A stretch of DNA of 64,000 nucleotides from an uncultured Solirubrobacterales bacterium (lineage in GTDB: Bacteria > Actinomycetota > Thermoleophilia > Solirubrobacterales > 70-9): the NCBI GenBank assembly GCA_963702035.1, contig OY969700.1, positions 2,301,915 to 2,365,914 on the forward strand, given 5' to 3'. How positions within the stretch are numbered: the first letter of the stretch is position 1; every line of letters begins with the position of its first letter. A program made the translations under genes and the position numbers. The notes under the pieces are model-generated. The model searched no databases. It was not told where the DNA came from and saw only the letters and a program-made list of their open reading frames with translations. Shown here in pieces: positions 11,555 through 46,300 of this stretch.

Positions 11555-11579
11555 TCGGGTCACGATAGCGCCGGCGGCG

Positions 11580-12908
11580 TTGGTGGCGGCTGCGATCGCG
11601 CTGTTGCTGGGCCTGCACGCGGCGGGCGCGGGCTTCCAGGGCAACCCCCACGCCGTCGTGCGCGACGCGGCGCCCGGTGGGCGGCTCTGGGAAGTGACTG
11701 ACCGCCGCGCCCCGGTGATCGGCGTGACGCTGCTCGTCTGGCTGGGGGCGTTTGCCGCCGCGATTGCTGCCGAACGCCTGTCTCTCCGTTCCGGTGTGCC
11801 TTTTGCCGCCTATGTGAGCAAAAAGCACACCGGAAGGGTCGGGGCGCGGCTGCTGGCGCTCTCGCTCGTCTACCTGCCGCTGCTCTGCCTGGTCGCGGCG
11901 GCGCTGGAGCCGAGCCTCGGCGCCGAACGGCTGCTGATCATGCTCGGCTCGCCCGCGCTGGCGGCGGTGACGCTGGCGAGCCTCGGCGGCTACCGGGCGC
12001 TCGCCTTCGCCTGCGCCGCGACGTCGCTGGCCTACGCGATTGACCTGATCGGCGGCTCGGCTCTGACCCAGCTCTCGATCGTCGGCCCCAACCCCGCCGG
12101 CGGGCACCGCTTCTACGGGATCGGCAACGAGCTCGAGGCCTGCCTGGTGGTCCTGATCCTGGTCGGCACCGGTGCGGCGCTGTCGAGTTTTGCCGTGCCA
12201 GGGCACGTACAAACTCCGCAGCGGCGCGTGGCCGACCGGGGGCCCGCTGCGTTTCTCGTCGTCGCTGCGATCTTCACCTTCGTCTTCGCTTATGGGCGCT
12301 ACGGGGCGGATGTCGGGGCGGCGATCAGCCTGCCGCTGGGTGCCGCGGTGGTCGCCGCGCTGCTCGCTGAGCGCCGCGACCTGGCGCTGCTTGCCTTCCT
12401 GCTGCCGATTCCCGCCCTGGTGCTGCTCTCCGCCGCCGACCTGATCACGAGCGCCAACGCTCACCTGACCAAGACCGTGCTCGACGCGAAGAGCGGCGGC
12501 GACGTCCTCGCCGTCGTCGGGCACCGTCTCAGCGAGACGGTGAGCAGCTTCGGTCGCCCCACCCTCATCGCCGGCCTGCCGGTGGTCATCGTCGCCGCCG
12601 CGATCGCCTGGCTGCGCCGCGACCGCCTGGCGACTTGGCTGAGCGGCCTCCCACCGATGCGCGCCGGCATGCTCGGTGCCCTCGCCGCGACCCTCGTCGG
12701 CACCGCCGCCAACGACTCCGGCGCCCTGCTGCTCGAGATCGGCGGCGCCTATCTACTGGTCTTCATCGGCTTCGCCTGGGCCGAAGGGACGCGCGTGGCG
12801 CGGCGCCCATCGGCGTCCTCGCTCGCTCGCGTGCAGAGCACGCCACGCTCCCTGCGTCCTCATATGGAGAGCTCCTCGTCAAGTGCCCAGGGTCGATCGG
12901 GCCCCTGA
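11580..12908 (+). CDS. Polytopic membrane protein of unknown family. Start is uncertain and the C-terminus reads into repeat F1-c and IS110 copy 2.
   Basis: Many TM segments (FYGIGNELEACLVVLILVGTG..). The last ~35 codons are encoded by F1-c and IS sequence. Carries two in-frame hairpin insertions. Confidence 0.45.
   Translation: MVAAAIALLLGLHAAGAGFQGNPHAVVRDAAPGGRLWEVTDRRAPVIGVTLLVWLGAFAAAIAAERLSLRSGVPFAAYVSKKHTGRVGARLLALSLVYLPLLCLVAAALEPSLGAERLLIMLGSPALAAVTLASLGGYRALAFACAATSLAYAIDLIGGSALTQLSIVGPNPAGGHRFYGIGNELEACLVVLILVGTGAALSSFAVPGHVQTPQRRVADRGPAAFLVVAAIFTFVFAYGRYGADVGAAISLPLGAAVVAALLAERRDLALLAFLLPIPALVLLSAADLITSANAHLTKTVLDAKSGGDVLAVVGHRLSETVSSFGRPTLIAGLPVVIVAAAIAWLRRDRLATWLSGLPPMRAGMLGALAATLVGTAANDSGALLLEIGGAYLLVFIGFAWAEGTRVARRPSASSLARVQSTPRSLRPHMESSSSSAQGRSGP
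11789..11835. repeat. H1 hairpin (TTCCGGTGYGCCTT..AAGGCRCACCGGAA type) inside a CDS
   Basis: TTCCGGTGTGCCTTTT-15 nt-AAAAAGCACACCGGAA. Sister copy at 22585-22631. Confidence 0.7.
12185..12216. repeat. H2 hairpin (TTTG..GCACGTACAAA type) inside a CDS, imperfect
   Basis: GAGTTTTGCCGTGCC-AGG-GCACGTACAAACTC. Shares GCACGTACAAA with 47892-47919. Confidence 0.5.
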
Positions 12909-14386
12909 CGGGCCGCTGCTGTCCAGCGGCGCTCTCGGGGCGACACGGGCGGGATCCAGGTACGTTGACTGCACCGTCAGCCTCATATGCGGGGGCTGGC
13001 TACCCCATGACCGCCGATTCGTCGCGTGGCCTGCAGTCTTGAAGCGGGCGCGGCCGGCGAGCACATCCGCCGACTGCCCGAGGACGCAACGCAGGCCGCA
13101 AAGCGGCGACGTGCTGGCCTCACTTGCTCCCGTGTCGCCCCGACAGCGTCGAGGGCGTTCCTTTCGCGGTGCCTCAGCCCAGCTGACCCACCTCCCACAC
13201 GAAGGCACCCAGCTCGCGCGCCAACGCGATCCTGACCACGTTGGCGGGCTTGCCACGCTCGAGGCGAAGGCGTTGCCAACGGTTGTGCAGACGCCGCTGG
13301 GCGCGCCAGCCGATCGCACAGGCACGGGGGTCGGCGCCGCGCTGGCGCTTCTCCAGTGCGCTGCCCACCCGGGGCTGGTGGCGGTAGTGGTGGGCTGCCT
13401 CGACGAGAAGACGGCGGGCGTGCGGAGAGCCGGCCTTGGTGATCGGCCCGCGCCGGCTTCGCTCACCGGAGGAGTGCTCGGAGGGCACGATGCCGAAGTA
13501 GGCCATCAGCGAGGCCGGGCGCTCAAAGCGCCTCAGGTCTCCCGCCTCTGCGCACAGGCCAAGCGCCGTCAGCGTGTTGATCCCGCGCAGGCAGCGCAGC
13601 CGGGCGATCGTCTCGGCCCACGGCGACTCAGGCCACAGCTCCTCGATCGTCCGCTCAGAAGCACCCCGTCGCTGTTCGAGCGCCACCACCGCGGCCAGGT
13701 AGTCCTCGAGCACGGCCCGCGAGGCGCCGTCGGGGAACCTGATCGCCTCCAGCCAACGCAAGTGGGCCTGTGTCCAGGCAGAACCGGGGCCCTCCCAGCG
13801 CAGCTCGCGGCGCAAGAGGAACTTGCCGAGCCGGTGACGGGCTCTCATCAGGTCGGCTCGGATCGCCTCCCGGCAGCGGGTCAGATCTCGGAAGCGCTCC
13901 TCCTCGGGGGTCGGGATGCGCACGAAGCGCAGTTCCCCCGCGAGGCACAGCCGCGCCAGCCGCTCGGCGTCGCGGCGATCGGTCTTGACCCGGTCGCTCG
14001 GCGCTTTGGGTATCGACCCCGGGGCACAGACGCGCACGTCGAGGTGACGTTCGGCGCCCCCTCGCGCGAGCCCGAAGCCGGTCGGTCCGGCCTCATAGAC
14101 CGCGAGGAGGGGAGCCTCGAGCCCTTCCAGGAAGTCGAGTGCTCCTCGCGGTGGGCCGTTCAGTCGTCGCGAGCGGAGCTCGCCTGTCTCGGGATGAAGA
14201 ACGCAGGCGTGAGTGTGTGTGGCGTGGACGTCGAGTCCCACCACGCTTTTAGGCTGGGGCATGTCGGCACCTCCCATGATTGGGGTGTCGGCCGCGGGGA
14301 CATCCCGCGGCCCAGTCCCCGCATCGTCATGCGCGGGGTGCCGACCTACCTACCGCTGGGGCCGGTCAGCACTCCATACGGTCTTG
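12861..14386 (-). mobile_element. IS110-family insertion sequence, copy 2
   Basis: See copy 1. Same orientation, 7913 bp downstream. Confidence 0.9.
13174..14277 (-). CDS. IS110 family transposase (one Q->H difference from copy 1)
   Basis: 367-aa ORF identical to 5261-6364 except THTHAC versus TQTHAC. Confidence 0.95.
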   Translation of the reverse strand: MGGADMPQPKSVVGLDVHATHTHACVLHPETGELRSRRLNGPPRGALDFLEGLEAPLLAVYEAGPTGFGLARGGAERHLDVRVCAPGSIPKAPSDRVKTDRRDAERLARLCLAGELRFVRIPTPEEERFRDLTRCREAIRADLMRARHRLGKFLLRRELRWEGPGSAWTQAHLRWLEAIRFPDGASRAVLEDYLAAVVALEQRRGASERTIEELWPESPWAETIARLRCLRGINTLTALGLCAEAGDLRRFERPASLMAYFGIVPSEHSSGERSRRGPITKAGSPHARRLLVEAAHHYRHQPRVGSALEKRQRGADPRACAIGWRAQRRLHNRWQRLRLERGKPANVVRIALARELGAFVWEVGQLG

Positions 14387-14450: not shown

Positions 14451-16772
14451 GTGCGAATTGCCCTAGTCTCGCCATATTCTTGGAGTTACCAGGGCGGCGT
14501 GAACCGGCACGTCGAGTCGCTCGCCGAGGAGTTTCTCGGTCGCGGTCACCACGTGCGTGTGCTCGCTCCCTTCGATCCTCCCGATCGGCTCAGCCGGGCG
14601 CTTCACCGCGCGCCCGCGGAGGCGCGGGAGATGCCCGACTATCTCGTCCCGATGGGCCGCACGGCTGGGTTCTCCGCCAACGGCGCGGTCTCCAACCTCG
14701 CCCCCTTCCCGGCGGGCGGCGTCATCGCCCCGCGTCGTGAGCTGCGCCAGGGCCGCTACGACGTGGTCCATATCCACGAGCCGATCGTGCCGCTGGTCGG
14801 CTGGAACGCCGCGCTTGGGACGCCCGCGCCCGCGGTCGGGACCTTCCACGCCTACTCGACCAAGGCGTTCCCCAACCACCTCGCTTCGGTGCTGGGGGGA
14901 AGGCGGGTCTTGAACCGGCTCTCGGCCCGGATCGCGGTCTCCGAGGCGGCCGCCTGGACCGGGCGCCGCTGGTTCGGCGGCCACTACGAGGTGATTCCGA
15001 ACGGCGTCGACGTCGACGCCGCGCCGGACGGCCAAAAGCCGCCGAACGATGAGCTGCGGGTGCTGTTCGTCGGCCGCCCCGAGGAGCGCAAGGGCCTGCC
15101 GGTCCTGCTCACCGCTTTCGAAGCGCTGGTCGAGCATGTGCCCAGCCGCCTCACCGTGATCGGGGCCGAGCGCGAGGACGTGCTGCGCTACCTGGCCGAT
15201 CCCGAGACGATGCGCTGGATCGACGTGCGCGGCCGCGTCTCCGGCGAGAGCCTCTGGACGGCGTTGCGCGACGCCGATCTGCTCTGCGCCCCCTCGCTCT
15301 CCGGCGAGAGCTTCGGCATGGTCCTCACCGAGGCCTTCGCCGCGGGCACCCCGGCGATCGCCTCCGCCATCGCCGGCTACAGCGACGTCGTCACCGATGG
15401 CGTCGACGGAGTGCTGGTCCCGCCCGGCGATCCGCAGCGCCTCGCCGAGGAACTGCAGCGCGCCCACCACGAGCCCGAGCGCCTGGCGGCGATGGGCGCG
15501 GCCGCGCGCCAGAGCGCCCAGCGATACGCCTGGCCGCGGGTCGCCGATCGCGTCACCCAGGTCTACGAGCGCGCGCTCGAGGCGCCGCAGCCGTCCGGCG
15601 CGCTCGAGCGCGCCGCGCACTGGGCCGGCATCAGGTCCGCCGACGGCGCTCCCTCGAACCCACCGCGCCGCCTGCCGACGCTCGACCCGCCGCTCGCGCA
15701 GAGCGGCAGTCGCAGGCGGCGCATCGCCCGCCGCGCCGGCCTCGGTATCGCCGGTGTTCTCGGCATCGGCCTCACCGCGCTGGCGGCGCAGAAGATCGGT
15801 GTCGACAACGTGATCGCGAGCATCGTCCGCTCCGACCTCACCTGGGTGCTTGTCGCCTGCGGGTTGATGGCCCTCTCGCTCTTCTTCCGCGCGGCCTCCT
15901 GGTACGCGATCGTGCGCGCGGCCCTGCCCAACCGGCCGGTGCGGCGTCGCGACGTCACCTCGGCGACGATGATCGGCGTGCTGATGTCGGCGACGCTGCC
16001 AGCACGGCTCGGCGAGCCGGCGAGGGCGATGACCCTCGCCCGGCGGATCGGGCGCATGCGCGAGACCTTCCCCGTGCTGCTCGGCACCCTCGTCTCGCAG
16101 ACCGTGCTGAACATCGTCGCGCTGGCCCTGCTGGGCACGATCATCGTCTCCAGTACCGACCTCTTCCACTCCAGCACCGAGAAGCTGTTCGTCTTCAGCT
16201 TCGTACCGCTCGCCCTCCTGCTCGTCGTCCTGATCGCGCCGGTGTTGATGCGCCGCAACGGCAACGGTCGCTTCGCCCGGATCGGCGCCGCGATGCACCG
16301 GGCCATGCTGCAGGTGCGGGCGGGCCTGGCGGTGTTCCGCCAGCCGCGTTACGGCGCCGTCGCCAGCATCGCCCAGCTCGGCGCCTGGGCGATCCAGCTC
16401 GCCGCCTGCTGGGCCCTGCTCGCGGCGCTCGGCCTCAGCGGACATGCCGGCATCGGCGCCGCGGCGGCGGTGCTGTTCGCGGTCAACGTGACCGCGGTCG
16501 TACCGGCGACCCCGTCGAATATCGGCGTCTTCCAGCTCGCCGTGATCAGCGTCCTGCATACCGGCTGGGGGATCAGCACCGCCGACGCCCTCGCCTACGG
16601 CGTCATCCTGCAGGCGGTCGAGATCGCCACCGCCGTCGCCCTCGGCCTGCCGGCTCTAGTACGCGAGGGCCTCACCTGGAGCGACCTCCGAGTCCAAGCA
16701 ATCTCCGCCTCTCCGGTCCGCCTCAAGCCGCATCCATCTCAGGACAGCACCCGCGAACGCATCGGAGCTTGA
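14451..16772 (+). CDS. GT4 (GT-B) glycosyltransferase fused to a UPF0104 (lysyl-PG-synthase-like, flippase-like) polytopic membrane domain
   Basis: N-terminus reads MRIALVSPYSWSYQGGVNRHVESLAEEF...PSLSGESFGMVLTEAFAAGTP. The C-terminal ~330 aa are TM-rich. Confidence 0.8.
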   Translation: MRIALVSPYSWSYQGGVNRHVESLAEEFLGRGHHVRVLAPFDPPDRLSRALHRAPAEAREMPDYLVPMGRTAGFSANGAVSNLAPFPAGGVIAPRRELRQGRYDVVHIHEPIVPLVGWNAALGTPAPAVGTFHAYSTKAFPNHLASVLGGRRVLNRLSARIAVSEAAAWTGRRWFGGHYEVIPNGVDVDAAPDGQKPPNDELRVLFVGRPEERKGLPVLLTAFEALVEHVPSRLTVIGAEREDVLRYLADPETMRWIDVRGRVSGESLWTALRDADLLCAPSLSGESFGMVLTEAFAAGTPAIASAIAGYSDVVTDGVDGVLVPPGDPQRLAEELQRAHHEPERLAAMGAAARQSAQRYAWPRVADRVTQVYERALEAPQPSGALERAAHWAGIRSADGAPSNPPRRLPTLDPPLAQSGSRRRRIARRAGLGIAGVLGIGLTALAAQKIGVDNVIASIVRSDLTWVLVACGLMALSLFFRAASWYAIVRAALPNRPVRRRDVTSATMIGVLMSATLPARLGEPARAMTLARRIGRMRETFPVLLGTLVSQTVLNIVALALLGTIIVSSTDLFHSSTEKLFVFSFVPLALLLVVLIAPVLMRRNGNGRFARIGAAMHRAMLQVRAGLAVFRQPRYGAVASIAQLGAWAIQLAACWALLAALGLSGHAGIGAAAAVLFAVNVTAVVPATPSNIGVFQLAVISVLHTGWGISTADALAYGVILQAVEIATAVALGLPALVREGLTWSDLRVQAISASPVRLKPHPSQDSTRERIGA

Positions 16773-16889
16773 GGCCTACCCCCGGTAGGGCTGGAACGTC
16801 TTGTACTTTTTCGGTGTGGGCAATGGGCGCCAGCCCACAAGCGATCCACCGAAACAAGTTAAGTGGAAGGCCTACCGGGGGTAGGCCTC
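16771..16889 (+). repeat. F2 long-hairpin element, copy A
   Basis: GAGGCCTACCCCCGGTAGGGCTGGAACGTCTTGTACTTTTTCGGTG...CACCGAAACAAGTTAAGTGGAAGGCCTACCGGGGGTAGGCCTC. Overlaps stop codons 16770-16772 (+) and 16888-16890 (-). Confidence 0.85.
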
Positions 16890-18135
16890 ACTCCTCCGAG
16901 CTGCGCGGCACCTTGCCCCCTTCGGCACCGGGTTCCTGCGCCGGCCCGCGGGGCGAGGCGATGCCGAGGACCCGCATCGCCTTGAGCCCGAGGCCGAGCT
17001 TCTCGCGGCCCTCGGTGGCGGAGACGTCGTGGCCGCAGAGCTCGCGCACGCGCTCGAGCCGGTAGCGGATCGTGTGGCGGTGGGTGAAGAGCTGTTTGGC
17101 GGTGGCGGCGACGTTGCCGTCATTGCCCAGGTAGGCCTCGACGGTCGCCACGAGCTCCGTCTCGTACTGGTCGTCATAAGCGGCGAGCGGCTCGATCGTC
17201 TCGGCGAAGAAGCGCTGCAGCTCACCCGGGTCCTCGCTCATCGCGGGCAGCAGCAGGCGGTAGGCGCCGGTGTCCTCGAAGGCGAGCAGGGGGCGGTCCT
17301 CGGCTTCGCCGACGTTGACCGCGAGGTGGGCCTCGTTGCCGGCGCGGTAGAGGTCGACGGGATCGGCGACGCGGCGGCTGGCGCCGATCGTCAGATGGAA
17401 GCCGGCGAGGGCGTCCTCGAGCTCGCGTGCGAGACCGGCGGCCGCGCGCTGCAGACGCTCTTCCTCCTCGACGGGGACGATCACGGCGATCTCTGTCGCG
17501 ACCTCGCCCTCGTCGACCGCGGCCAGGGCGCCGGGGGCAAGCGAGCGCAACGTCCGCATCGCGAGGGTCAACACACGCGCCCGCCACTCGCCGGTCTGTG
17601 CGGTTCGCGGCGCGGCACGCAGCACGATCGCCCCGGCTCCCTTCTCCAGATCCGTGCCGAGCTCGCCGGCGCGGGCGACGATGTCGCCGCGGTCGGTCAC
17701 CTTGCGGCCGAAGACCGCGGCGACGAAGACCCCCGCGACCTCCTCGTTCTGCCAGTCGGGTGAGCGGGAGCGCTCCAGCTCCAGGGCCAGCAGGGTCGTC
17801 ACCATCCGCGCGATCGCCGGATCGGGCGGAGCTTTCGCTCTGTAGCGCAGCTCACCGACCGCCGCATCGGCCACCCGCAGCTCCACAGAAGTAACCCGCT
17901 CCCCGCCGGCCAGCAGCTTCTCCTCCTGATCCGGAGACGCGCCGGCCACAGCCAGCACAGCCCCCGATCGCTCGATCAGCGCGACACTCGCATCCAGCAC
18001 CCGAGCCGCCGCCCGCGCCACCGCAGGCAGTCCAGCTCCCGACTCAACAGCTTCGGAGAGCGCCCCCAACGGCTCCTGATCAGCCGCCTTTGCAGGAGTT
18101 TTCGACCCTTTCGCGCTGGTAGACATCCTGGTCAT
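16888..18135 (-). CDS. PucR family transcriptional regulator
   Basis: C-terminal HTH: AATAKQLFTHRHTIRYRLERVRELCGHDV. Confidence 0.8.
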   Translation of the reverse strand: MTRMSTSAKGSKTPAKAADQEPLGALSEAVESGAGLPAVARAAARVLDASVALIERSGAVLAVAGASPDQEEKLLAGGERVTSVELRVADAAVGELRYRAKAPPDPAIARMVTTLLALELERSRSPDWQNEEVAGVFVAAVFGRKVTDRGDIVARAGELGTDLEKGAGAIVLRAAPRTAQTGEWRARVLTLAMRTLRSLAPGALAAVDEGEVATEIAVIVPVEEEERLQRAAAGLARELEDALAGFHLTIGASRRVADPVDLYRAGNEAHLAVNVGEAEDRPLLAFEDTGAYRLLLPAMSEDPGELQRFFAETIEPLAAYDDQYETELVATVEAYLGNDGNVAATAKQLFTHRHTIRYRLERVRELCGHDVSATEGREKLGLGLKAMRVLGIASPRGPAQEPGAEGGKVPRSSEE

Positions 18136-18155
18136 TATCGCGATGCCTCCCGTCT

Positions 18156-18268
18156 AGGGCCTGTCCGGTAGGGCTGGAACGTCTTGTACTTTTTCGGTGT
18201 GGGCCTCGGGCGCCAGCCCAAACGCGACCACCGAAAAAGTTAAGTGGAAGCCCTGCCGGACAGGCCCT
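18156..18268 (+). repeat. F2 long-hairpin element, copy B
   Basis: AGGGCCTGTCCGGTAGGGCTGGAACGTCTTGTACTTTTTCGGTG...AAAAAGTTAAGTGGAAGCCCTGCCGGACAGGCCCT. Abuts the stop codon at 18268-18270 (-). Confidence 0.85.
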
Positions 18269-18525
18269 CAGCCGAGTACTTCGACAATGTCGTTGTAGTA
18301 GTAGACGATTGCAAGCCCCACGACAACGCCCGTAAGGACCAGCGCGACAAGCACGATCACCGAAAGCACTCCCGCCGCGGTCTTCTCCCAGATGCGCCCG
18401 TAGGAGCCGATCGCGGGGACGAAGATCAGGGCGACGAAGGCGACCAGGCTGACCAGCCCGGCTCCGCCGAAGAGCAGGTACTCATTTTCGATCTTCTGCA
18501 GGGCGAGCGGCAGCACGGTCCCCAT
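18268..18525 (-). CDS. Small two-TM membrane protein
   Basis: 85 aa, hydrophobic (LLFGGAGLVSLVAFVALIFVPAIG...). Overlaps the upstream gene end by 44 nt. Confidence 0.5.
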   Translation of the reverse strand: MGTVLPLALQKIENEYLLFGGAGLVSLVAFVALIFVPAIGSYGRIWEKTAAGVLSVIVLVALVLTGVVVGLAIVYYYNDIVEVLG

Positions 18526-20038
18526 TCTGGCGCACCGACCCGTCCGAAGAGTGGGGCCGTCGCATCGTCTCGATGGTGGATGCGAGCAGGGCGACGGCCG
18601 CGCAGAGCGAGAAGGCCGCGGCGCCCAGCGCCCAGCCGGCGCTGACGTCGCTCATGTAGTGGACGCCGAGGTAGACGCGCGAGAGGCCGATCAGGGCGGT
18701 GAGGGCGATCCCGCCCGCGACCACGAGTGCTCCCCGCGCCATCCCGACCCGCAGGCGCATCACGATCGTCACCGCCAGCCAGACGTAGAAGGTCGAGTAG
18801 GCGGCATGGGCGCTGGGGAAGGACGATCCGGAGACGCTGACGAGCCCGTCGCCGGGCCGCGGCCGGTCGACGGCGTCCTTGATCTCGTGCACGCCGACGA
18901 TGACGATCGCCATGCCGGCGACCAGCACGCCGAGCTCGGCCCAGCGGCGGCGGGCGGCGAGGATCGCAGCGGCGACCGCGGCGAGCGGCCAGCAGATCGC
19001 GCCGGAGCCGAGCGCCGTGACCAGCTTGGCGATGTTGACGAGCCAGGCGGCGCGCAGCTTTTCGGCGATTTCCATCGCGGTGATGTCGCCGGGCGTGGGG
19101 CCGGGATCGCCGTTGACGACCACGGTGTAGGCGACGAGGACGAAGGCGGCGACGGCAAGGGTCGCCATCAGCGAGGTGAATTCGAGCCCGAAGGTGCCGC
19201 CCGGCGTCACCCGGTCCCAGAGGAAGCTGAGCTGCGGTTGGAAGCGGCGCGCGAGGACGACGATCCACCGCGTCGCCCAGTGTCCCTCCATCCAGCGCAC
19301 CGCGGCTCGCCGGTTCGCCTCGACCCGAAAGTGGCGCACCAGCCAGACCGCGCCGGCGACGACGACAATCAGCGTGGCGAGCAGGAAGGCGCCTTTGCCG
19401 GCGTACTTGGCGGCGGTGTCGATGCTGCGCGAGAAGAAGTAGCCGATCAGGATGTGGGCGCTGGCCCAGAGCCCGGTCCCGAGGATGCTGTAGGGGACGA
19501 AGGCGCGGTAGCGCATGCCCGAGCTGCCGGCGATGAAGGGCGCGAAGGCGCGCACGAGGCTGACGAAGCGGCCGATGAAGATCGTCTTGCCGCCGTGGCG
19601 GGAGAAGTAGTCCTCGACTTTCTCGAAGCGCTCGTGGCTGATCCCGAAACGGGGGCCGTTGCGCATCACGAACTCGCGGCCGAGCCTGCGGCCGAGGAAG
19701 AAGCTGGTCGTGTCGCCGGCCCAGGCGGCGAACCAGGCGACCGCGATCAGCAGGTAGATGCTGATCGCCCCCTGACCGGCGACCGCGCCGCCCAGCAGCA
19801 TCACGGTCTCGCCGGGGACGACGAGGCCGACGAAGGCGCCCGTCTCAGCGAAGGCGAAGACGCCGACGAGCAGGTAGGTCCAGGCGCCCAGCGTGTTCGA
19901 GACGTCTTCCAGCAGCTGCTGGAGGTTTTCGTGCGGGATCAGCCGGCTGAGCAGGTAGTAGCCGGCGGCGATCGCGACGGCGATCGTCGCGATCAGCAGG
20001 CGTTTCCGCCGCCGGTCCTCTGGCAGCTGAAGTTTCAC
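18482..20038 (-). CDS. DedA (VTT/SNARE-associated) domain fused to a PAP2 phosphatase domain
   Basis: N-terminus reads FAFAETGAFVGLVVPGETVMLLGG. C-terminus carries the PAP2 motifs SFPSAHAAYS and SRVYLGVHYMSDV. Confidence 0.8.
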   Translation of the reverse strand: MKLQLPEDRRRKRLLIATIAVAIAAGYYLLSRLIPHENLQQLLEDVSNTLGAWTYLLVGVFAFAETGAFVGLVVPGETVMLLGGAVAGQGAISIYLLIAVAWFAAWAGDTTSFFLGRRLGREFVMRNGPRFGISHERFEKVEDYFSRHGGKTIFIGRFVSLVRAFAPFIAGSSGMRYRAFVPYSILGTGLWASAHILIGYFFSRSIDTAAKYAGKGAFLLATLIVVVAGAVWLVRHFRVEANRRAAVRWMEGHWATRWIVVLARRFQPQLSFLWDRVTPGGTFGLEFTSLMATLAVAAFVLVAYTVVVNGDPGPTPGDITAMEIAEKLRAAWLVNIAKLVTALGSGAICWPLAAVAAAILAARRRWAELGVLVAGMAIVIVGVHEIKDAVDRPRPGDGLVSVSGSSFPSAHAAYSTFYVWLAVTIVMRLRVGMARGALVVAGGIALTALIGLSRVYLGVHYMSDVSAGWALGAAAFSLCAAVALLASTIETMRRPHSSDGSVRQNGDRAAARPAEDRK

Positions 20039-20049
20039 CAGGCGCAGTC

Positions 20050-20913
20050 TTACGGGGCCGGGCCCGCCGCGCAGACGATCGCGTCGTCGCGGTCGATCGC
20101 CTGCGCGGCCCGCCGCGCCGTCGCCAGGTCGGAGAAGAGGCCGAAGGCGGTCGGGCCGGAGCCGGTCAGCAGGGCGACCGGCGCGCCCGCCGCGCGCAGC
20201 GCGTCGAGCGCGGCGCCGATCTCGGGCCGCAGCGAGCGCGCCGCCGGCTCGAGGTCGTTGGCGAGCAGCTCGGCGTAAGCGAGCGGTGAGGCGCCGCCGC
20301 CTGCCGCCGCGCGCAGCCGCGCCGCCAACTCGTCGAGCTCGGCCTCGCCGCGCCCGAGCCCGAGCCGGTCGGCCTCGGCGAAGACGGCGGCGGTGCTCAA
20401 CCCGCCCCCGCCGGGTAGCAGGACGAAGGCATGGGAGGCAGGAGCCGGCAGGCGCTCGATCCGCTCGCCAGCCCCGCGCACGAGGGCGAGCGCGGGCGCG
20501 AGCTGCGAGGGCACGTCGGCGCCGAGCTCGGCCGCGAGCGCCGGCAGGTCGAGCTTTGGCGCGTTTGTCGGACTATTTCCGACAAACGCGCCACGGGCGG
20601 CCAACCGCAGCACCGCGGCGGCATCGGCGCTGCCGCCGCCGAGCCCGGCGGCGACCGGGATCCGCTTCTCGATCTCGACCCGCAGCGGTGGCCCGTCCCA
20701 GCCGCGCTCGCGCAGCGCCGCCAGCGCCCGGGCGGCGAGGTTCTCGCCTTCGACCCCCGCGCAGATCACCTCGTCGCTGCCAGCCTCGGAGACCTCAATC
20801 GCGTCGGCCAGGGCGAGCGGCTCGAACAACGAGCAGAGATCGTGCAGGGCGTCGGCGCGGCGCGGGCCGAGGTAGAGGCAGAGGTTGAGCTTGGCGGGTG
20901 CTTTGATGCGCAT
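20050..20913 (-). CDS. ispE: 4-diphosphocytidyl-2-C-methyl-D-erythritol kinase
   Basis: MRIKAPAKLNLCLYLG...IPVAAGLGGGSADAAA...LGADVPSQL. ATG 20913 is preferred over the track start. Confidence 0.85.
   Translation of the reverse strand: MRIKAPAKLNLCLYLGPRRADALHDLCSLFEPLALADAIEVSEAGSDEVICAGVEGENLAARALAALRERGWDGPPLRVEIEKRIPVAAGLGGGSADAAAVLRLAARGAFVGNSPTNAPKLDLPALAAELGADVPSQLAPALALVRGAGERIERLPAPASHAFVLLPGGGGLSTAAVFAEADRLGLGRGEAELDELAARLRAAAGGGASPLAYAELLANDLEPAARSLRPEIGAALDALRAAGAPVALLTGSGPTAFGLFSDLATARRAAQAIDRDDAIVCAAGPAP
20558..20592. repeat. H2-type perfect hairpin inside ispE
   Basis: GGCGCGTTTGTCGGA-CTATT-TCCGACAAACGCGCC (15-bp perfect stem). Encodes part of ..GAFVGNSPTNAPK.. Confidence 0.75.
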
Positions 20914-20917
20914 GGTT

Positions 20918-21029
20918 GGGGACTGTCCCAGTGAGGGTTCTCTCAACTTTTTCTGAAGACAGTTATCTGCTGTCCGTCGGCCCTATCGCAGAAAAAGTAC
21001 AAGCCGTTCACCCCCACTGGGACAGTCCC
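20918..21029 (-). repeat. F2 long-hairpin element, copy F (divergent)
   Basis: The reverse complement reads GGGACTGTCCCAGTGGGGGTGAACGGCTTGTACTTTTTCTG...CAGAAAAAGTTGAGAGAACCCTCACTGGGACAGTCCCC. Spans from the ispE start into the last 7 codons of rsmA. Confidence 0.7.
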
Positions 21030-21772
21030 TTCCGTAATGCTTGGAACTGACCCGGAGAAAGCTGCTCGGCCCGAGCGTTTTTGGGCAAGTCAAGCTCCTC
21101 GAGGGCAGAGCGGGTCGGAGCGAGTGAGCCGGGGCGGACGTGCTCCAGCGAGCGGGCCAGGGACTTGCGGCGGTGGGCGAAGGCGGCGCGAACCAGCTCA
21201 CGGGTAGCGGCGTCGGCGCCGGGCCCGGTGCGGCGCAGGCTCAAGATCGCCGACTCGACTCGCGGCCGCGGCCGGAAGACCGCCGGGTCGACAGTGCGCA
21301 GCAGCTTCACCTCGCAGGCCAGCTGCGCCTGCACGCTCGGCGAGCCGTAGGTCCGGCTGCCCGGCGCGGCGCGCAGGCGGTCGGCGATCTCGCGCTGCAC
21401 CATCACCGTCCAGCGCGTGACTCGGGGCAGCTGCTCGATCGTGCGCAAGATCAGCGGCGTGGCGATCGAGTAGGGCAGGTTGGCGACGACCGCACTCGGC
21501 GCCGGGTCGAAGCCGACCAGGTCGAACTTCATCGCATCGCCCCAGTGCAGCTCGACCCCGGGGCGCGCCGCGAGCGGCGCCAGCACGGGCTCCAGGTTGC
21601 GGTCGATCTCGATCGTGTGGACGTGCGCGGCGACGGCAGCGAGGCGCTCGGTCAGCACCCCTTCGCCGGCGCCGACCTCCAGCACGATGTCGGTCGGCTC
21701 GAGCTCGGCATCGCGGACGATCGCGTCGAGCAGGTTCGGATCGGCGAGGAAGTTCTGCCCGAGCCTGACCAA
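21008..21772 (-). CDS. rsmA: 16S rRNA (adenine1518/1519-N6)-dimethyltransferase
   Basis: LGQNFLADPNLLDAIV...VLEVGAGEGVLTERL...VANLPYSIATP. Confidence 0.9.
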   Translation of the reverse strand: MVRLGQNFLADPNLLDAIVRDAELEPTDIVLEVGAGEGVLTERLAAVAAHVHTIEIDRNLEPVLAPLAARPGVELHWGDAMKFDLVGFDPAPSAVVANLPYSIATPLILRTIEQLPRVTRWTVMVQREIADRLRAAPGSRTYGSPSVQAQLACEVKLLRTVDPAVFRPRPRVESAILSLRRTGPGADAATRELVRAAFAHRRKSLARSLEHVRPGSLAPTRSALEELDLPKNARAEQLSPGQFQALRKGLSQWG

Positions 21773-26340: not shown

Positions 26341-27108
26341 ATGCCGAGGTACACCGAGGACGAGGCACGTGAGGCGGTTGCCGTGTCGGAGTCGTACAGC
26401 GAGGTGCTGCGTCGTCTTGGCATGCGGCCTGCGGGTGGTAATCACGCTCTGCTGAAGAAATACGTAGACGAGGTTTGGAAGATCTCGACCGACCACTTCG
26501 ATCCGGGAGCGGCTGCGACGAGAAACCTCCATAGCTCTCCAAGGCCGCTGGCCGAGATCCTTGTCCGCGGATCGACCTACTCGCGGGGCAAGGTCAAGCA
26601 GCGGCTCTTCGAGGTGGGTATGAAGGAGCGTGTTTGTGAGATGTGCGGCCAAGACGAAAACTGGCGTGGCAGCCGCATGGCGCTGATCCTCGATCACATC
26701 AACGGGACGCCGGAGGACAACCGGATCGAGAATCTGCGGATCGTCTGCCCGAATTGCGCTGCGACTCTCGATACCCATTGCGGCCGGAAAAACCGGATGC
26801 AGGCTCCCACCCGGGTCTGCAAGCGATGCGGGCGTGAGTTCACCGCCAAATATCGACGACACCGCTATTGCTCACGCGCGTGTGGAATCAGGTGGGATCG
26901 GTCAAGCGTGAGAGGAAAGCCGCACATGGACCAGCGCAGGGTTGAGCGGCCTCCCTACGACCAGCTCTTGAAGGAAATCGAGCGCCATGGCCACGTTGCG
27001 ATCGGCTGCAAATACGGCGTCTCCGACAACGCGGTCCGCAAGTGGGTGCGGTTCTATAAGCGGCAGACGGAGCGCGAAGCGACCGAATCGGCCTCCGCTC
27101 AGGACTAA
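26341..27108 (+). CDS. HNH endonuclease (stand-alone, phage/homing type)
   Basis: CEMCG...ALILDHINGTPEDNRIENLRIVCPNCAA plus a second Cys cluster (CKRCG..CSRAC). Local GC is visibly lower than in the flanks. Confidence 0.8.
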   Translation: MPRYTEDEAREAVAVSESYSEVLRRLGMRPAGGNHALLKKYVDEVWKISTDHFDPGAAATRNLHSSPRPLAEILVRGSTYSRGKVKQRLFEVGMKERVCEMCGQDENWRGSRMALILDHINGTPEDNRIENLRIVCPNCAATLDTHCGRKNRMQAPTRVCKRCGREFTAKYRRHRYCSRACGIRWDRSSVRGKPHMDQRRVERPPYDQLLKEIERHGHVAIGCKYGVSDNAVRKWVRFYKRQTEREATESASAQD

Positions 27109-29277: not shown

Positions 29278-30302
29278 GCACGATCGAGCAGCGCCCCGAG
29301 GCGGCGCCAACCGCCATCCCGCACGACTACTCGAAGCGGATGATGGTCTTCGGCGGCCGCAGCTCGATGGAGCTGGCCGCCAAGGTCGCCGGCAAGCTCG
29401 AACTCGACCTCGGCCAGGTGACGCTGAAGACCTTCGCCAACGGCGAGGTCTACTGCCGCTACGAGGAGTCGATCCGCGGCGCCGACGTCTTCATCGTGCA
29501 GTCAACCTGCGCCAACGAGCAGAGCGAGATGACGCCGAACGACGCGATAGTCGAGCTGCTGACGATGATCGACGCCGCCCAGGGCGCCTCGGCGCACCGC
29601 ATCATCGCCGTCCTGCCCTGGTACGGCTACGCGCGCCAGGACAAGAAGTCCGCCCCGCGCGAGCCGATCTCGGCCCGGATCATGGCCAAGTGCCTCGAGG
29701 CCGTCGGTACCGACCGCGTCCTCACCATGGATCTGCACGCCGGCCAGGTGCAGGGCTTCTTCCACGTCCCGGTCGACCACATGACGGCGATGCCGATGCT
29801 GACCCAGTGGTTCGCCGACCAGGAACTGAGCGAGGAGCTGGTGATCGTCTCTCCCGATGCCGGCCGGGTCAAGACCGCGCGCAACTTCGCCCGCCGCATC
29901 GGCACCCACTGGGCGGTGATGGAGAAGGAGCGTCCCGCCCAGCAGGTGGCCGAGATCGGCTACGTGGTCGGCGACGTCAAAGGGAAGACCGCGGTTCTCG
30001 TCGACGACATGATCGACACCGCGGGGACGCTCTGCGCCGCCGCCCAGACGGTGCTCGACGAGGGTGCCGCACGGGTGATCGCCTGCGCCACGCACGGCGT
30101 CTTCTCCGGCCCCGCGTACGAACGCCTCGCCGACTCGGCGATCGAGCGGATCGTCGTCACCGACACGATTCCACTTCGCCCCGGCGCCCCGGACAACATC
30201 ACGGTGCTCTCGACCGCCGGCACCTTCGCCGACTCGATCCGCCGCATCTTCACCGACGATTCGGTCTCAGAGATCTTCGCCGGCGAGAACCAGCTCTTTT
30301 GA
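29274..30302 (+). CDS. prs: Ribose-phosphate pyrophosphokinase
   Basis: FANGEVYCRYEESIRGADVFIVQS...AVLVDDMIDTAGT. Confidence 0.95.
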   Translation: MSTIEQRPEAAPTAIPHDYSKRMMVFGGRSSMELAAKVAGKLELDLGQVTLKTFANGEVYCRYEESIRGADVFIVQSTCANEQSEMTPNDAIVELLTMIDAAQGASAHRIIAVLPWYGYARQDKKSAPREPISARIMAKCLEAVGTDRVLTMDLHAGQVQGFFHVPVDHMTAMPMLTQWFADQELSEELVIVSPDAGRVKTARNFARRIGTHWAVMEKERPAQQVAEIGYVVGDVKGKTAVLVDDMIDTAGTLCAAAQTVLDEGAARVIACATHGVFSGPAYERLADSAIERIVVTDTIPLRPGAPDNITVLSTAGTFADSIRRIFTDDSVSEIFAGENQLF

Positions 30303-30320
30303 CGCGGGCGGCCGCGACGA

Positions 30321-30440
30321 GCCATGGTGTCTGGGCGGCCATGACCGGCGCGATACGGCCTCTCCCCGACGCCCCACGTAGCGCTGCTACGCGGGGGTCG
30401 TGTCGTGACCGTCTCGCTTGGTCCTGACCATCCAGCCATC
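30321..30440 (+). repeat. R4 repeat, left copy (inverted relative to 31942-32066)
   Basis: The 81-bp core 30343-30423 is about 95% identical to the reverse complement of 31960-32040. Contains the hairpin CCCCACGTAGC-GCT-GCTACGCGGGG. Confidence 0.8.
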
Positions 30441-30441
30441 C

Positions 30442-31206
30442 ATGTCTCGCCTTGCCGACCGCTCTGAACTGCTGAAGGTGGGGCACAAGGGGGCAGATTC
30501 GATCATCCTGGGGAACACCCTTGAGAGCTTTGAAAAAGGGGTCGAGGTCGGGGTCGACGTCATCGAGCTCGACGTGCTCTGGACGCGCGACGGGCACCCG
30601 CGCATCGAGGCGGCGGAGCGGACGCCGCTGATCGTCGCCCACGACTGGCATGACGCGGAAGGACGCGAGCCGCTGACCCTGGCCGAAGCGCTCGACGCCT
30701 TCACGAAGCCGCCGCTCGACCGGGTCGAGGTCGATCTCGACATCAAGCTGCCCGGGCGGGAGGAGGAGATCGTCGCCGCCGTCCGCGAGCGCGGGCTGCT
30801 CGACCGCGCGATGGTCTCGACCATGGAGCTCTTCACCCTGGCCAAGGTCGGTGCGCTCGAGCCGGGCCTGCGGCGCGGCTGGACCTATCCCAGGGTGACC
30901 AAGGACTGGACCTCGAAGCGCTGGGCGAAGCCGCCGATGCTCGCTGCGCTGGTCTGGATGCGCCACCGCCTGCCCGGCCTCGCCGCCCGCGAACTGCCCA
31001 AGATGGGGGTCGAGGCGATGTGGGTCTACCACCCGCTCGTCAGCCGCCAGCTCGCCAAGATCACCGCCCTGGCCGGAGTCGAGCTGATCGCCTGGACGGT
31101 CGACGACGCGAGCCGCATGGAGAAGCTCGTGGCCGCGGGCGTAGACGGCATCTGCTCCAACGACCCCCGCCTTTTCGCTTCGATCGACGGTCGATTGGAC
31201 AGTTGA
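30442..31206 (+). CDS. Glycerophosphodiester phosphodiesterase family protein
   Basis: VGHKGADSIILGNTLESFEKGVEVGVDVIELDVLWTRDGH. ATG 30442 is preferred. Confidence 0.8.
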   Translation: MSRLADRSELLKVGHKGADSIILGNTLESFEKGVEVGVDVIELDVLWTRDGHPRIEAAERTPLIVAHDWHDAEGREPLTLAEALDAFTKPPLDRVEVDLDIKLPGREEEIVAAVRERGLLDRAMVSTMELFTLAKVGALEPGLRRGWTYPRVTKDWTSKRWAKPPMLAALVWMRHRLPGLAARELPKMGVEAMWVYHPLVSRQLAKITALAGVELIAWTVDDASRMEKLVAAGVDGICSNDPRLFASIDGRLDS

Positions 31207-31893: not shown

Positions 31894-31941
31894 GGACTTC
31901 ACTCCAACTTCAATTCCGACGCGGTCGGCAAGGCCCGACGT

Positions 31942-32066
31942 GGATGGATGGGTGCCCACGACCAAGCGAGGCGGTCACGACACGACCCCCGCGTAGCAGC
32001 GCTACGCGGGGCGTCGGGGAGGGGCCGAATCGCGCCGGTCGTGGGTGACCAGACGCCGCGTCTGGC
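31942..32066 (-). repeat. R4 repeat, right copy
   Basis: See 30321-30440. Confidence 0.8.
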
Positions 32067-32102
32067 CGCAGTCGCCCGCGTCCCAACCGCGTTTGATCCT
32101 GC

Positions 32103-35649: not shown

Positions 35650-35764
35650 TAAGCCCATCCGGTAGGGCTTTCACTTAACTTCTTTCGGTGGATCGCCTGT
35701 GGGCTGGCGCCCGCGGCCGGCACCGAAAAAGTACAAGACGTTTCAGCCCTACCGGATGGGCTTA
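35650..35764 (-). repeat. F2 long-hairpin element, copy C
   Basis: TAAGCCCATCCGGTAGGGC...GCCCTACCGGATGGGCTTA. Lies between stop codons 35640-35642 (+) and 35762-35764 (-). Confidence 0.85.
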
Positions 35765-37121: not shown

Positions 37122-37227
37122 CCCCTGAGCTTGTCAGGCCAGGACGCAGGGAGAAGGCAAGGGGAGCGCACAGTTAGTGCGTGACCCGCAGCCGCCGACC
37201 GAGGACGCCGCATGACAAGCTCAGGGG
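37122..37227 (-). repeat. F1 element, copy f (unoccupied IS110 target box at 37141-37153)
   Basis: Perfect arms CCCCTGAGCTTGTCA / TGACAAGCTCAGGGG. The reverse complement of the core aligns with copy a (GCGGCGTCCTCGGTCG..GGGTCACGCACTAACTGTGCGCTCCCC..CTCCCTGCGTCCT). Ends 8 nt before the mfd ATG. Confidence 0.8.
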
Positions 37228-37234
37228 CCGCCAG

Positions 37235-40200
37235 ATGTCACTCCGCCCCCTGCTAGAGATAGCCGCTGAGAATGAGCGCGTCCACGCGCTCGCCGGCGAG
37301 GTGCGCGCCGCGGGCGGTGGCTCGCCGGTCGAGATCGGCGCCTCGGCCACTCTGCGCCCGCTGCTGCTGGCGACCCTGCTCGAGGACGATCGCGGCCTGG
37401 CCGGCCGCCCGGCGCTGCTGGTCAGCGCCGACGATCGCTCGGCCCGCGACCTCGCCGCCGATCTGCGCGCCTACCTGGCGCCCCGTCGGGTCCGCTTCTA
37501 CCCCTCGCGGGGAACTGGCTACGCCTCTCACGTCACTCCGCCTCCTCACCTCGTCGGTCTGCGCATCGACGCGCTCGACTCGCTGCGCACCGAGGAGGAC
37601 GCGATCGTCGTCGCCAGCGCCGTCGCCCTTGCCGAGGCGGTGCCGGACGCCTCGCTGCGTCCCGCCGGCTTCACGCTCGAGCTGGGCGGCAGTGTCGAGC
37701 TCGAGACCGCCGCGCGCGACCTGGTCGCCGCCGGCTACGAGCGGGTCGAGCAGGTCGAGGAGCGCGGCCAGTTCGCCGTCCGCGGCGGCATCCTCGACGT
37801 CTATCCGGCGACCGAGGAGCGCGCCGTGCGGATCGAGCTGTTCGGCGACGAGATCGAGTCGATGCGCTGGTTCTCGACCTTTACCCAGCGCTCGCTCGGC
37901 GACGCCGAGCGGGTCGAGCTGGCGCCCGCCGCCGAGCTCGACGCCGAGCACCGCGAGCTGGCCGAGCTGGCCGCGATGGAGGCCGCCGAAGAGGGCAAGG
38001 AGCCGCCGAGCCCGGCCGAGGTCCTGCCGATCGAGCATTTCGGGCCCCCGCTGGATCTCGTCCCCGCCGAGGCGGCCGTGATCCTCGCCGCCGCCGAGGA
38101 GATCGAGCCGGCACTGCGCGACCACTGGGAGGACGCGACGGCGGCGATGCACGCCGACGACGCCCGCCACCTCTACGTCGAGGTGGCCGCGCCGCTAGCG
38201 GCGCGCGCGATCCTCGCCGTGAGCGGGGCCGGGGAGGACGACGAGACGGCATTTCGTGCCTCGCGCGCCGAGTCTCCCGCCCGCAGCGTCAAAGAGGCCG
38301 AGGGCGAGCTGGAGAAACACGTCCGCTCCGGCTACCGCACGGTCGTCGCCTTCGACAACCGCGGCGAGGCGGAACGCTCGCGCTATGGCCTCGAACGCCT
38401 CGACGCCACCCTGCTCGACGGCGGCCGCCTCTCGCCGGACCCCGGCCTGGCCTTCGCCGAGGCGCGCCTGCGCGAGGGCTTCGTCAGCCCCGAGCTGCGC
38501 CTCGCCGTCTACCCGTTCCGCCGCCTCGTCCACCGCCGCAAGCGGGCCGAGGAGCGGCTGCCGGGCGCCGGCAAGGGCCGGCTCGCCTTCAGCGACCTCC
38601 GCGTCGGCGACTACGTCGTCCACGAGGACCACGGCGTCGCCCGCTTCGCCGGCTTCGAGACGCGCGAGGTCGGCGGCATCAGCCGCGACTACCTCTACCT
38701 CGAATACAAGGGCGAGGACCGGGTCTACGTCCCGACCGACCAGCTGGCGAAGTTGAGCCGCTACGCCGGCTCGGGCGCCGCACCGTCGCTCTCGGCGCTC
38801 GGCGGCAAACGCTGGCAGAACATGAAGGCTCGCGCGCGCAAAGCGGCGGGCGCCCTGGCCGGCGAGCTGCTCAACCTCTTTGCCGAGCGGCGCACCCGCA
38901 AGGGCCACCCCTTCTCGCCGGACGGCGAATGGCAGATCGCGATGGAGACGGCCTTTCCCTACCGCGAGACGGCCGACCAGCTGGAGGCGATCGAGGCGGT
39001 CAAGGGCGACATGGAATCCGAGCAGCCGATGGACCGGCTGGTCTGCGGCGACGTCGGCTTCGGCAAGACCGAGGTGGCGCTGCGGGCCACGGTCAAGGCC
39101 GCCTCCGACGGCAAGCAGGTGATGATGCTGGCGCCGACGACGATCCTCGCCCAGCAGCACTTCGGCACCTTCCGCGAGCGCCTCGCCGACCTCCCCTTCA
39201 CGCTCGACTGGGTTTCGCGCCTGCGCAAGCCGGCGGAAGTCAAAGAGGTGCTGAAGCGCTATGAGGCGGGCGAGATCGACGTCCTGGTCGGCACCCACCG
39301 ACTGCTCTCCCGCGACGTGCGGGCCAAGGACCTCGGCCTCCTGATCGTCGACGAGGAGCAGCGCTTCGGCGTCAAGCAGAAGGAGCTGCTGCGGCAGCTG
39401 AAGCTGAAGGTCAACGTGCTGTCGCTGTCGGCGACGCCGATCCCGCGCACCCTGCAGATGAGCCTGGCGGGGCTGCGCGACATCTCGACGATCGAGACCC
39501 CGCCCGAGGGGCGCCGGCCGGTCCGCACGTATGTCGGCCCCTACGACGAGGACCTGGTCCAGCGCGCGATCGAGCGCGAGCTCGAGCGCGGCGGCCAGGT
39601 TTTTTTCCTGCACAACCGGATCGAGAGCCTGCCCGAGGTCGCCGAGCAGCTGCGCGGGCTCGTCCCCAAGGCGCGCGTGGTCGAAGCCCACGGCCAGATG
39701 GACGAGGGGGAGTTGGAGAAGACGATGATGGGCTTCCTGCGCGGCGAAGCCGACTGCCTGGTGACGACGACGATCATCGAGTCCGGGCTCGACATCCCCA
39801 CCGCGAACACGCTGATCGTCGAGCGCGCCGACCGGCTCGGGCTCGCCCAGGCCTACCAGATCCGCGGCCGGGTCGGGCGCTCCCGCGAGCGCGCCTTCGC
39901 CTACCTGCTCTACCCCTCCACCGAGGCGCTGACCGAGGACGCCGCGGCCCGCCTGACCACCCTCGCCGACCACACCGAGCTCGGCTCCGGCTTCAAGATC
40001 GCGATGCGCGACCTCGACATCCGCGGCGCCGGCGACCTGCTCGGCGACGAGCAGTCGGGCCACGTCGCCGCGGTCGGCTTCGAGCTCTACTGCCAGATGA
40101 TCGACGAGGCCGTCGCCGAGGCGAGCGCGGCGGGGGAGGAGGGCGAGGAGGCGCCGGAGCCGCTGCGCTTCGACGTCCCCGTCGATGCCTACCTGCCCGC

Positions 40201-46247: not shown

Positions 46248-46251
46248 CGTC

Positions 46252-46294: not shown

Positions 46295-46300
46295 GGCGGT

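Follow-up and report, generated by a model that had tools for sequence, protein, structure and literature searches.

The stretch of DNA analysed here, referred to below as the window, comprises 64,000 nucleotides of contig OY969700.1 from an uncultured Solirubrobacterales bacterium, and six copies of a repeat of ~113–121 nt, each folding as one long hairpin, lie along it in the orientations + + − − + +. The core 19-mer of the repeat has six matches in the window, with 0.00 expected by chance. The repeat is best read as a family of interspersed palindromic repeats of ~115 nt, so far undescribed, across the Solirubrobacterales (Thermoleophilia, Actinomycetota). Copy B, a complete hairpin element at 18156–18268 on the + strand, is antisense to the genes of its operon and fills the spacer from a stop codon to the next ribosome-binding site; the last base of its 3′ arm, T18268, is the first base of TCA (18268–18270), the stop codon of the − strand gene at 18268–18525. 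Its layout is AGGGCCTGTCCGGTAGGGCT–GGAACGTCTTGTAC–TTTTTCGGTG–(29-nt apical region)–CACCGAAAAA–GTTAAGTGGA–AGCCCTGCCGGACAGGCCCT. The closing stem is formed by the 5′ arm AGGGCCTGTCCGGTAGGGCT (18156–18175, +) and the 3′ arm AGCCCTGCCGGACAGGCCCT (18249–18268, +) and includes a T18169:G18255 wobble. The conserved asymmetric 5′ core GGAACGTCTTGTAC (18176–18189, +) holds the GGA of a 3 × 3 purine loop, the covarying purine A18179 (partner T18245), the pair C18180:G18244 and a bulge, and is followed by the 5′ strand of the inner T5 helix, TTTTTCGGTG (18190–18199, +), which pairs with 18229–18238. Beyond the variable apical region (18200–18228, +), with its recurring CGG-N-C-R-GCC motif, the 3′ strand of the inner helix and the conserved 3′ core, CACCGAAAAA GTTAAG T GGA, occupy 18229–18248 (+). 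Under a covariance model of the repeat, copy B scores 115.1 bits on the + strand versus 39.8 bits on the − strand.

The same architecture is found throughout the family, for which 124 full copies were analysed and 114 were placed in a model-fitted alignment. The closing stem of about 21–25 bp has an outer half that is variable around a (C)TAG-RGCC-NR-TCC consensus and an inner half in which a conserved CGGTAGGGG is paired with CCCCTACCG. Inward of this stem lies a symmetric 3 × 3 purine loop, 5′-GGA/5′-GGA (G·A, G·G or A·A, A·G). Next to this loop lies a covarying purine–pyrimidine (R–Y) pair, which is G–C in 66 copies, A–U in 52 and A·A in six, and then a C–G pair; further inward come a bulge and the near-invariant CTTGTAC/GTTRAG region. 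The T5/A5-containing inner helix (helix 3) is 99.9% paired, and the apical region of about 30–40 nt is free in sequence, with the CGG-N-C-R-GCC motif recurring. One subfamily (the GTTGAG type, with CCCCTCC stems) has Watson–Crick pairs in place of the purine loop. Since the conserved core is asymmetric, the element has an intrinsic orientation, which is marked by the GGA/GGA loop, the R–Y pair, the bulge and the T5/A5 helix, as well as by a wobble bias of the adjoining inner stem. The arm consensus AGRGCC-NR-TCCCGGTAGGGG is common to non-orthologous copies; the termini follow (C)TAG-RGCC…GGCY-CT(C)AG only loosely and are the most variable paired part. Across the family, CTTGTAC is preceded by T whenever the R of GTTRAG is A, and by G whenever it is G, a perfect covariation in which the second combination, G/G, is non-Watson–Crick; in copy B these bases are T18182 and A18242. 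This covariation hints at a tertiary or protein contact, or merely at subfamily linkage.

Copy A (16770–16890, +; 105.1 bits) lies between convergent genes, and its terminal stem contains the stop codons of both neighbours (TGA, 16770–16772; TCA, 16888–16890), while copy F (20919–21029, −; 96.3 bits), a divergent copy, lies between rsmA and ispE, the rsmA reading frame entering its 5′ arm and ending at a TGA in the core. Copies C (35650–35764, −; 104.6 bits) and E (48323–48439, +; 106.8 bits) are, like copy B, antisense-placed, and copy D (46641–46755, +; 115.8 bits) is again situated between convergent genes. Copies C and E are 12.5 kb apart and mutually inverted, with unrelated flanks, and are 95% identical over 113 nt, which suggests recent copying or gene conversion between copies; the orthologue of copy E at L095 (loci outside the window are designated by L numbers) carries compensated differences. 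The predicted energies of the six hairpins range from −60 to −77 kcal/mol (z-scores −6.9 to −10.4), and in all six the strand with CTTGTAC…GTTAAG folds 5–8 kcal/mol better than its complement. At gathering thresholds, Rfam 15 recognised only three tRNAs in the window and no family matching the repeat, and relaxed thresholds added only chance matches to microRNA hairpins (14–22 bits). A promoter and terminator consensus scan of 16500–21300 gave no signal in or beside copies A, B and F, and the 3′ flank consensus is CTCAG, without the T run of an intrinsic terminator. Synteny between L012 and the window ends exactly at the 3′ boundary of copy A (window 16890/16891; ~1140 in L012); copy A is absent from L012, where the sequence continues with a homologue of window 26648–27086.

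A search of a species-representative genome collection with a pattern of the two core boxes found at least 118 loci with the element, and among the matches listed nearly all loci belong to Solirubrobacterales or Thermoleophilia metagenome-assembled genomes. The covariance model, R1, gives true copies 72–124 bits on the core-defined strand and about 31–47 bits on the complement. Viral contigs yielded 22 pattern matches, none of which fits this model, and these are therefore chance matches; a blastn search of plasmids gave no match to the element, and the literature searched contained no report of such repeats from Solirubrobacterales or Thermoleophilia. The copy number is high, at six per 64 kb, which by extrapolation corresponds to about one copy per 10 kb and a few hundred per 2.5-Mb genome.

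An initial annotation of this stretch had reported mirrored substitutions in the two arms of the closing stem in copies B, C, D and E, together with a T:G pair in copies B and D. The arm sequences that it quoted are all exact on re-reading; B and D, as well as C and E, differ by G:C to C:G and C:G to G:C replacements and a compensated 1-nt insertion, and the T:G pair is present (T18169:G18255 in B), where A, C and E have T:A. When covariation was assessed over the genomic copies (114–124), 98.2% of the stem cells in the 114-copy fitted alignment were paired, versus 72.5% after shuffling, with 812 versus 199 cells changed on both sides and a covariation score of 0.650 versus 0.157; none of 500 shuffles reached the observed values. 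Sliding the 3′ partners by 1–3 columns lowers pairing to 37–56%. An arm-against-arm alignment that weighted G:T and A:C equally gave about 97–98% Watson–Crick pairs at positions 5–25, with three to four pair types nearly everywhere. Compensatory changes are present in 20 of the 20 closing-stem pairs, and RNAalifold scored 23 of 31 pairs as compensatory. The compensatory pattern noted in four copies is therefore a family-wide property, and while the closing stem drifts in sequence, its pairing is actively upheld.

Pairing is also maintained at single sites. Orthologous groups were defined by flank similarity as copies at the same locus and in the same orientation in different species, and 26 such groups cover 70 copies. 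Within these groups identity is 75% in the arms, 90–93% in the core and 64% in the apical region, alongside 78–84% in the mostly coding flanks, and pairing is retained despite the divergence of the arms. L071 and L102 differ by two compensated pairs and compensated indels, with zero uncompensated changes; close relatives show single compensated transitions in pairwise alignments; and the compensated changes between copy B and L030 are clustered. In a clade comprising L209, L207, L181, L190 and L213 the left arm is the last 5–7 codons of a membrane protein, the frame ending at the TAG of GGTAGG, and the covariation of this coding sequence with the non-coding right arm is preserved. The raw count of compensatory states among orthologues, at least 151, is inflated by register-shifting compensated indels and serves qualitatively, not as a rate. 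Arm divergence of 25%, compared with 36% in the near-neutral apical region, places compensated replacement at a large fraction of the apical rate. Such replacement is well above what classical two-step compensatory evolution would yield if selection were strong, from which we infer that some DNA-level arm-to-arm correction may contribute in the stem, its outer half included.

The T:G pair had further raised the question whether wobble pairs lie consistently on the strand co-oriented with the core. Under strand-symmetric mutation a single transition from any Watson–Crick pair yields G:T or A:C equally, so that the null expectation is 1:1. At positions 5–25 the raw counts are 48 G:T and 9 A:C, or 46 and 9 when each state is counted once per locus (p = 4 × 10⁻⁷). 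The fitted alignment without its two terminal pairs has 50 G:T and 14 A:C (p = 7 × 10⁻⁶), and 34 and 14 when a hot column is also removed (p = 0.0055); at the two outermost pairs, where the register is unreliable, A:C exceeds G:T. The column of the T:G pair itself contains U:A 53 times, C:G 17 times, U:G 15 times and C:A never. After de-duplication the inner half of the stem (positions 5–13) has 34 G:T versus 2 A:C (p = 2 × 10⁻⁸), whereas the outer half (positions 14–25) has 12 versus 7 (p = 0.36), and 9 versus 9 on the fitted alignment. The expected wobble bias is thus borne out overall and in the inner half, and is non-significant in the outer half; an equal frequency of A–C and G–U, which the initial annotation had named as contrary evidence, is absent overall and is seen in the outer half of the fitted alignment. 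Its proposal of selection on a folded single strand is partly supported, by the covariation and the polarity; the compensatory changes that it quoted lie in the outer half, where the bias is not significant. As the left arm of the inner half is off-consensus in 10–45% of copies, almost always with compensation, the bias is not simply that of a frozen left arm. Its sign is identical in sense, antisense and convergent gene contexts, which rules out the direction of the neighbouring gene as the source of the polarity. The whole element folds at −69.7 kcal/mol in the sense and −67.1 kcal/mol in the antisense direction, the core strand being better by 2.6 kcal/mol, and better in 88 of the 124 copies; for the closing stem alone the advantage is 1.15 kcal/mol, with 56 copies better, 36 equal and 32 worse. 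The strand polarity is real but moderate, and localised beside the conserved core. Since G:T is tolerated in single-stranded DNA (ssDNA) and RNA alike, the wobble data do not single out RNA.

Copies of the repeat settle at the 3′ ends of genes and between operon genes, in either orientation. Of the 124 copies, 46 have the stop codon of a flanking gene within 40 nt at their 3′ end alone, 21 at their 5′ end alone, 28 at both ends and 29 at neither, so that a stop codon abuts at least one end in 95 copies; divergent gene contexts are rare (11). The stop codons are often part of the terminal stem, on its left side as TAG, TGA or TAA and on its right side as TCA or TTA, or are the inner TAG of GGTAGG, and operon copies occupy the spacer from the stop codon to the next ribosome-binding site. 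Housekeeping genes (rsmA, deoC and an enoyl-CoA hydratase gene) are followed by copies at conserved orthologous sites, in both orientations. A few copies may lie within open reading frames (ORFs): three or four are possible internal cases, and the confirmed cases are C-terminal overlaps only. A link between orientation and replication was considered and dismissed: the GC skew on the element strand is just −0.006 (p = 0.013; 49 of 118 loci positive) and the orientations are mixed within the 64-kb window. Non-adjacent genes number 284 on the element strand and 329 on the opposite strand, and element orientation is at most weakly linked to replication.

Comparison of filled and empty sites shows that the whole unit, arms included, was inserted. 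Copy F is absent from L030, the closest relative, and from L015, where rsmA and ispE share the stop/start overlap ATGA, and is present in L012 and L094; copy B is absent from L015 and L094, and copy D from L095, where the convergent genes overlap. Conversely, the copies of L014, L110, L004 and L029 are missing from the window at ~11570–11836, and L154, L162 and L172 have spacers of 10–20 nt where L153 and L156 carry a whole element with its arms. Of 80 metagenome homologues of the gene at 43800–46247, which encodes a putative membrane protein, about 19 are followed by a copy, at three different exact positions. At L159 (about 3864–3905), gcccaagcccggcagggattggccc stands in place of the full element of L160 (3876–3996), a remnant with the left arm joined to the outer right arm that looks like an internal deletion or an excision footprint. 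The repeated unit is thus the whole hairpin, including its variable closing stem, and copies are gained and lost between related genomes, the element being occasionally mobile. The tail of rsmA at the empty site of L030 had raised the idea that the 5′ arm is local sequence and the 3′ arm is copied on insertion; this was dismissed, as the arms in L012 and L094 match the family consensus. The flanking T-N-A triplets are inverted and not direct (TGA…TCA in A; TAA…TTA in C), and double as stop codons.

Related hairpins are found within coding sequence. The ORF at 43800–46247 (+) encodes 815 amino acids with the look of a multi-pass membrane protein, has no Pfam match and stays open through three hairpin repeats, all in frame: a sister-family hairpin, GCGTCCTCTTTTTCGC…GCGAAAAACCCAGC, at 44066–44188 (−; R1 score 45.8 bits), a second one at 44695–44804 (+; 35.5 bits) and a copy of a third hairpin family at 45437–45509. 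In 38 metagenome homologues of this ORF the three places are variable loops, with no insert or with an insert in either orientation, and the inserted peptides read RRPVFR..AKNPAP or LGFSP..GEKEDAA. The third family, about 86 nt long and folding at −66 to −68 kcal/mol, is represented at 45430–45515 (+) and 54105–54190 (−), the latter directly after the tRNA at 54016–54101; the two copies differ by compensated changes within a conserved frame, GGGTGGC…GACAGGA(Y)CCGC, which also surrounds the sister-family copy at 44062–44192. After the membrane-protein gene, at 46250–46300, lies a palindrome, GATGGGCCTAAAAC…GTTTTAGGCCCATC, that is distinct from the main repeat and also follows this gene in L142, L149 and L174; other homologues carry further palindromes at this place (TCCGGTGCGCCTTT…AAAGGCGCACCGGA). 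Many kinds of hairpin have thus gathered at one intergenic site.

Among 36 window genes, a Pfam scan revealed no transposases other than two copies of an IS110-family element (4935–6473 and 12848–14386; 1539 bp each, 99.87% identical), with DEDD_Tnp_IS110 and Transposase_20 domains in a protein of 367 amino acids. A link between IS110 and the repeat was dismissed, as the IS110 flanks are not the hairpin element, and no parent insertion sequence was found among the scanned window genes or in the plasmid search. Other repeats in the window are a short one, GGGTCACGCAC-(loop)-GTGCGCTCCCCT, which forms a small hairpin at ~4895–4930, 7850–7885 and 37155–37237, one of these just left of the first IS110 copy, and an inverted repeat of 162 nt, 85% complementary (30301–30462 and 31921–32082), which encloses about 1.46 kb including a GDPD-family gene (30418–31206).

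The reading that we favour, with about even confidence, is that the repeat constitutes a new family of mobile palindromic repeats, comparable to REPINs, Rickettsia palindromic elements (RPE) and Correia elements, that is maintained as a folded single strand, either ssDNA or RNA. A trans-acting protein would read the core by recognising the folded single strand of that polarity, and would most plausibly be whatever copies the element; if the strand is ssDNA, the precedent would be HUH/RAYT-type enzymes, the alternative being RNA. Resident copies may be co-transcribed with their neighbours as stable RNA hairpins, predicted at about −67 to −70 kcal/mol on either strand, which, perhaps as substrates of RNase III-type enzymes, could serve to define, protect or process the ends of transcripts. 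Such a role would supply the host-level selection, or tolerance, that preserves pairing at orthologous sites. Persistence at orthologous sites favours a role at the host level, and the mixed orientation, the gain and loss of copies and the in-frame sister copies favour an origin as a selfish repeat.

Several observations weigh against this reading of a mobile family kept as a folded strand. The termini are only moderately conserved and conservation peaks mid-arm, unlike in REPINs and miniature inverted-repeat transposable elements with terminal inverted repeats. In the outer half of the stem the G:T excess is not significant. At 46 of the 124 copies the sole adjoining gene end is in antisense orientation, so that the neighbouring mRNA would be expected to contain the other strand and not the favoured one. 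No HUH/RAYT-like protein occurs among the 36 scanned window genes, and no target-site duplication was seen, the comparisons of filled and empty sites being too diverged to read one. Finally, paired copies persist at orthologous sites where the apical region is near saturation, which fits a host-functional RNA as well as, or better than, a selfish element.

A host-functional structured RNA, namely a lineage-specific 3′-UTR (untranslated region) or intercistronic element or a multi-copy small RNA, bound by a protein at the GGA/GGA loop and acting as a general termination, processing or stability signal, is the strongest of the alternatives, and we regard it as possible rather than probable. It would account for the pairing kept across species at orthologous loci with near-saturated apical sequence, for the 90–93% conservation of the core, for the purine–purine loop and wobble bias on one strand, and for the strict confinement of copies to the ends of genes, whose stop codons the terminal stem contains. 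It accords poorly with the orientation relative to the adjacent gene, which is mixed and leans antisense (3′ only 46, 5′ only 21, both 28), with the lack of promoter- or terminator-like signals in or next to the element in the 16500–21300 scan and of any Rfam match, with presence or absence between close relatives and different exact positions after the same gene, and with sister families inside coding sequence. The repeat might also be neither junk nor merely selfish, but a lineage-wide, protein-recognised structured signal, serving a dedicated termination, processing or nucleoid-organising system found in Solirubrobacterales alone, or acted on by an as yet unrecognised enzyme of single-strand transposition or recombination, a proposal that we consider doubtful. 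In that case the GGA/GGA loop, the bulge and the U5/A5 helix would form a specific binding platform, and the unrecognised enzyme could also keep the two arms complementary.

A purely DNA-level explanation, in which the arms, as inverted repeats, are kept complementary by gene conversion or intramolecular template switching (quasi-palindrome correction) with no selection on a folded strand, and the wobble bias simply follows from a constraint on the sequence of the G-rich GGTAGGGG arm, draws on the compensated arm pair replacement (25%), which amounts to much of the near-neutral apical rate (36%), as far as a rate can be argued from these values, on the clustering of compensated changes, as between B and L030, and on the variable outer half without a significant G:T excess. 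We nevertheless think it unlikely: the inner left arm is not locked in sequence (10–45% off-consensus, with compensation), yet its one-sided states are 34 G:T versus 2 A:C; the conserved non-Watson–Crick loops have been retained and not 'corrected'; and orientation is only weakly tied to the direction of replication, on which template switching depends. The notion that the closing stems are host terminator hairpins that pre-date the insertion of a smaller core into their loops is effectively refuted and carries very little probability. Some outer stems do look like terminators, such as AAAAGCCGATCCGG…CCGGATCGGCTTTT in copy E, and copies do lie at gene 3′ ends, but unrelated loci share one outer-arm consensus, several copies belong to common subfamilies (for example GCCTGTCC in B, D and F), no matching hairpin stands at empty orthologous sites (the ATGA overlap of L015; the 10–20-nt spacers of L154, L162 and L172) and orthologous copies change their arms in place. 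Equally refuted in effect, and the least credible of all, is an integron attC-like recombination site. An attC site is an imperfect palindrome that acts as a folded single strand with strand-specific extrahelical bases, and the present element shares with it a 113-nt imperfect palindrome, bulged bases and a polarity that comes from unpaired bases, as well as the boxes GTTAAGT, GTTAAGC and GTTGAGC, which fit the R′ consensus GTTRRRY. However, the partner box is CTTGTAC and not RYYYAAC, with the AAC triplet lost and the inverse core unconserved; the box sits some 25 bp into the stem rather than at its foot; copies follow housekeeping genes in both orientations and form no unidirectional cassette array; and no integrase occurs among the scanned window genes.

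Having weighed these alternatives, we regard the repeat as a new family of bacterial interspersed palindromic repeats, and its lineage as new to this class, without assigning it to any named family. Such repeats are well studied in proteobacteria and Rickettsia, and Thermoleophilia are an abundant and poorly cultured soil lineage. The Correia elements of Neisseria and the ERIC/IRU sequences of enterobacteria are imperfect palindromes of 100–150 bp at gene ends, with conserved terminal inverted repeats and TA target duplications, which are co-transcribed as long RNA hairpins and processed by RNases, altering mRNA stability with orientation-dependent effects. The present repeat is likewise an imperfect palindrome at gene ends, and differs in that terminal repeats with target duplications are not demonstrable. 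Ogata et al. are said to have described RPE in 2000 as palindromic repeats of 100–150 bp; RPE occur in intergenic regions and also as in-frame insertions in protein-coding genes, to whose products they add surface or loop peptides. The in-frame palindromic insertions in the ORF at 43800–46247 are a clear likeness, limited to the sister families, the main repeat being almost always intergenic; there is no sequence relationship, and the host phylum is another. REPINs, which are REP doublets forming hairpins and are mobilised by RAYT transposases, for example in Pseudomonas fluorescens SBW25, consist of two inverted conserved segments and a less conserved spacer and form a hairpin in ssDNA or mRNA, in which compensatory changes are common (PMC3116915). 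The present family resembles them as an extragenic multi-copy unit of roughly 100 nt with inverted conserved segments, a spacer, a hairpin and long-term vertical persistence. In contrast to REPINs, its conserved halves are not short palindromic REPs, folding alone at just −8.1 kcal/mol (left) and −3.2 kcal/mol (right), its conservation peaks in an asymmetric internal-loop core mid-arm with variable ends, no RAYT/Y1 transposase occurs among the 36 scanned window genes, and its host is an actinobacterial order.

The repeat provides a clean example of a long stem whose pairing survives deep divergence, also in cases with one coding arm, and which has a measurable strand polarity. The covariance model can be used for annotation, and the family can serve as a binning marker for Solirubrobacterales contigs; as the repeat supplies stop codons and C-termini, gene callers should be applied with caution around it. 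The in-frame insertions of the sister families in a membrane protein extend to Actinomycetota the view that palindromic elements shape proteins. If a dedicated binding or mobilising protein does exist, the origin and maintenance of such repeats would become directly testable.

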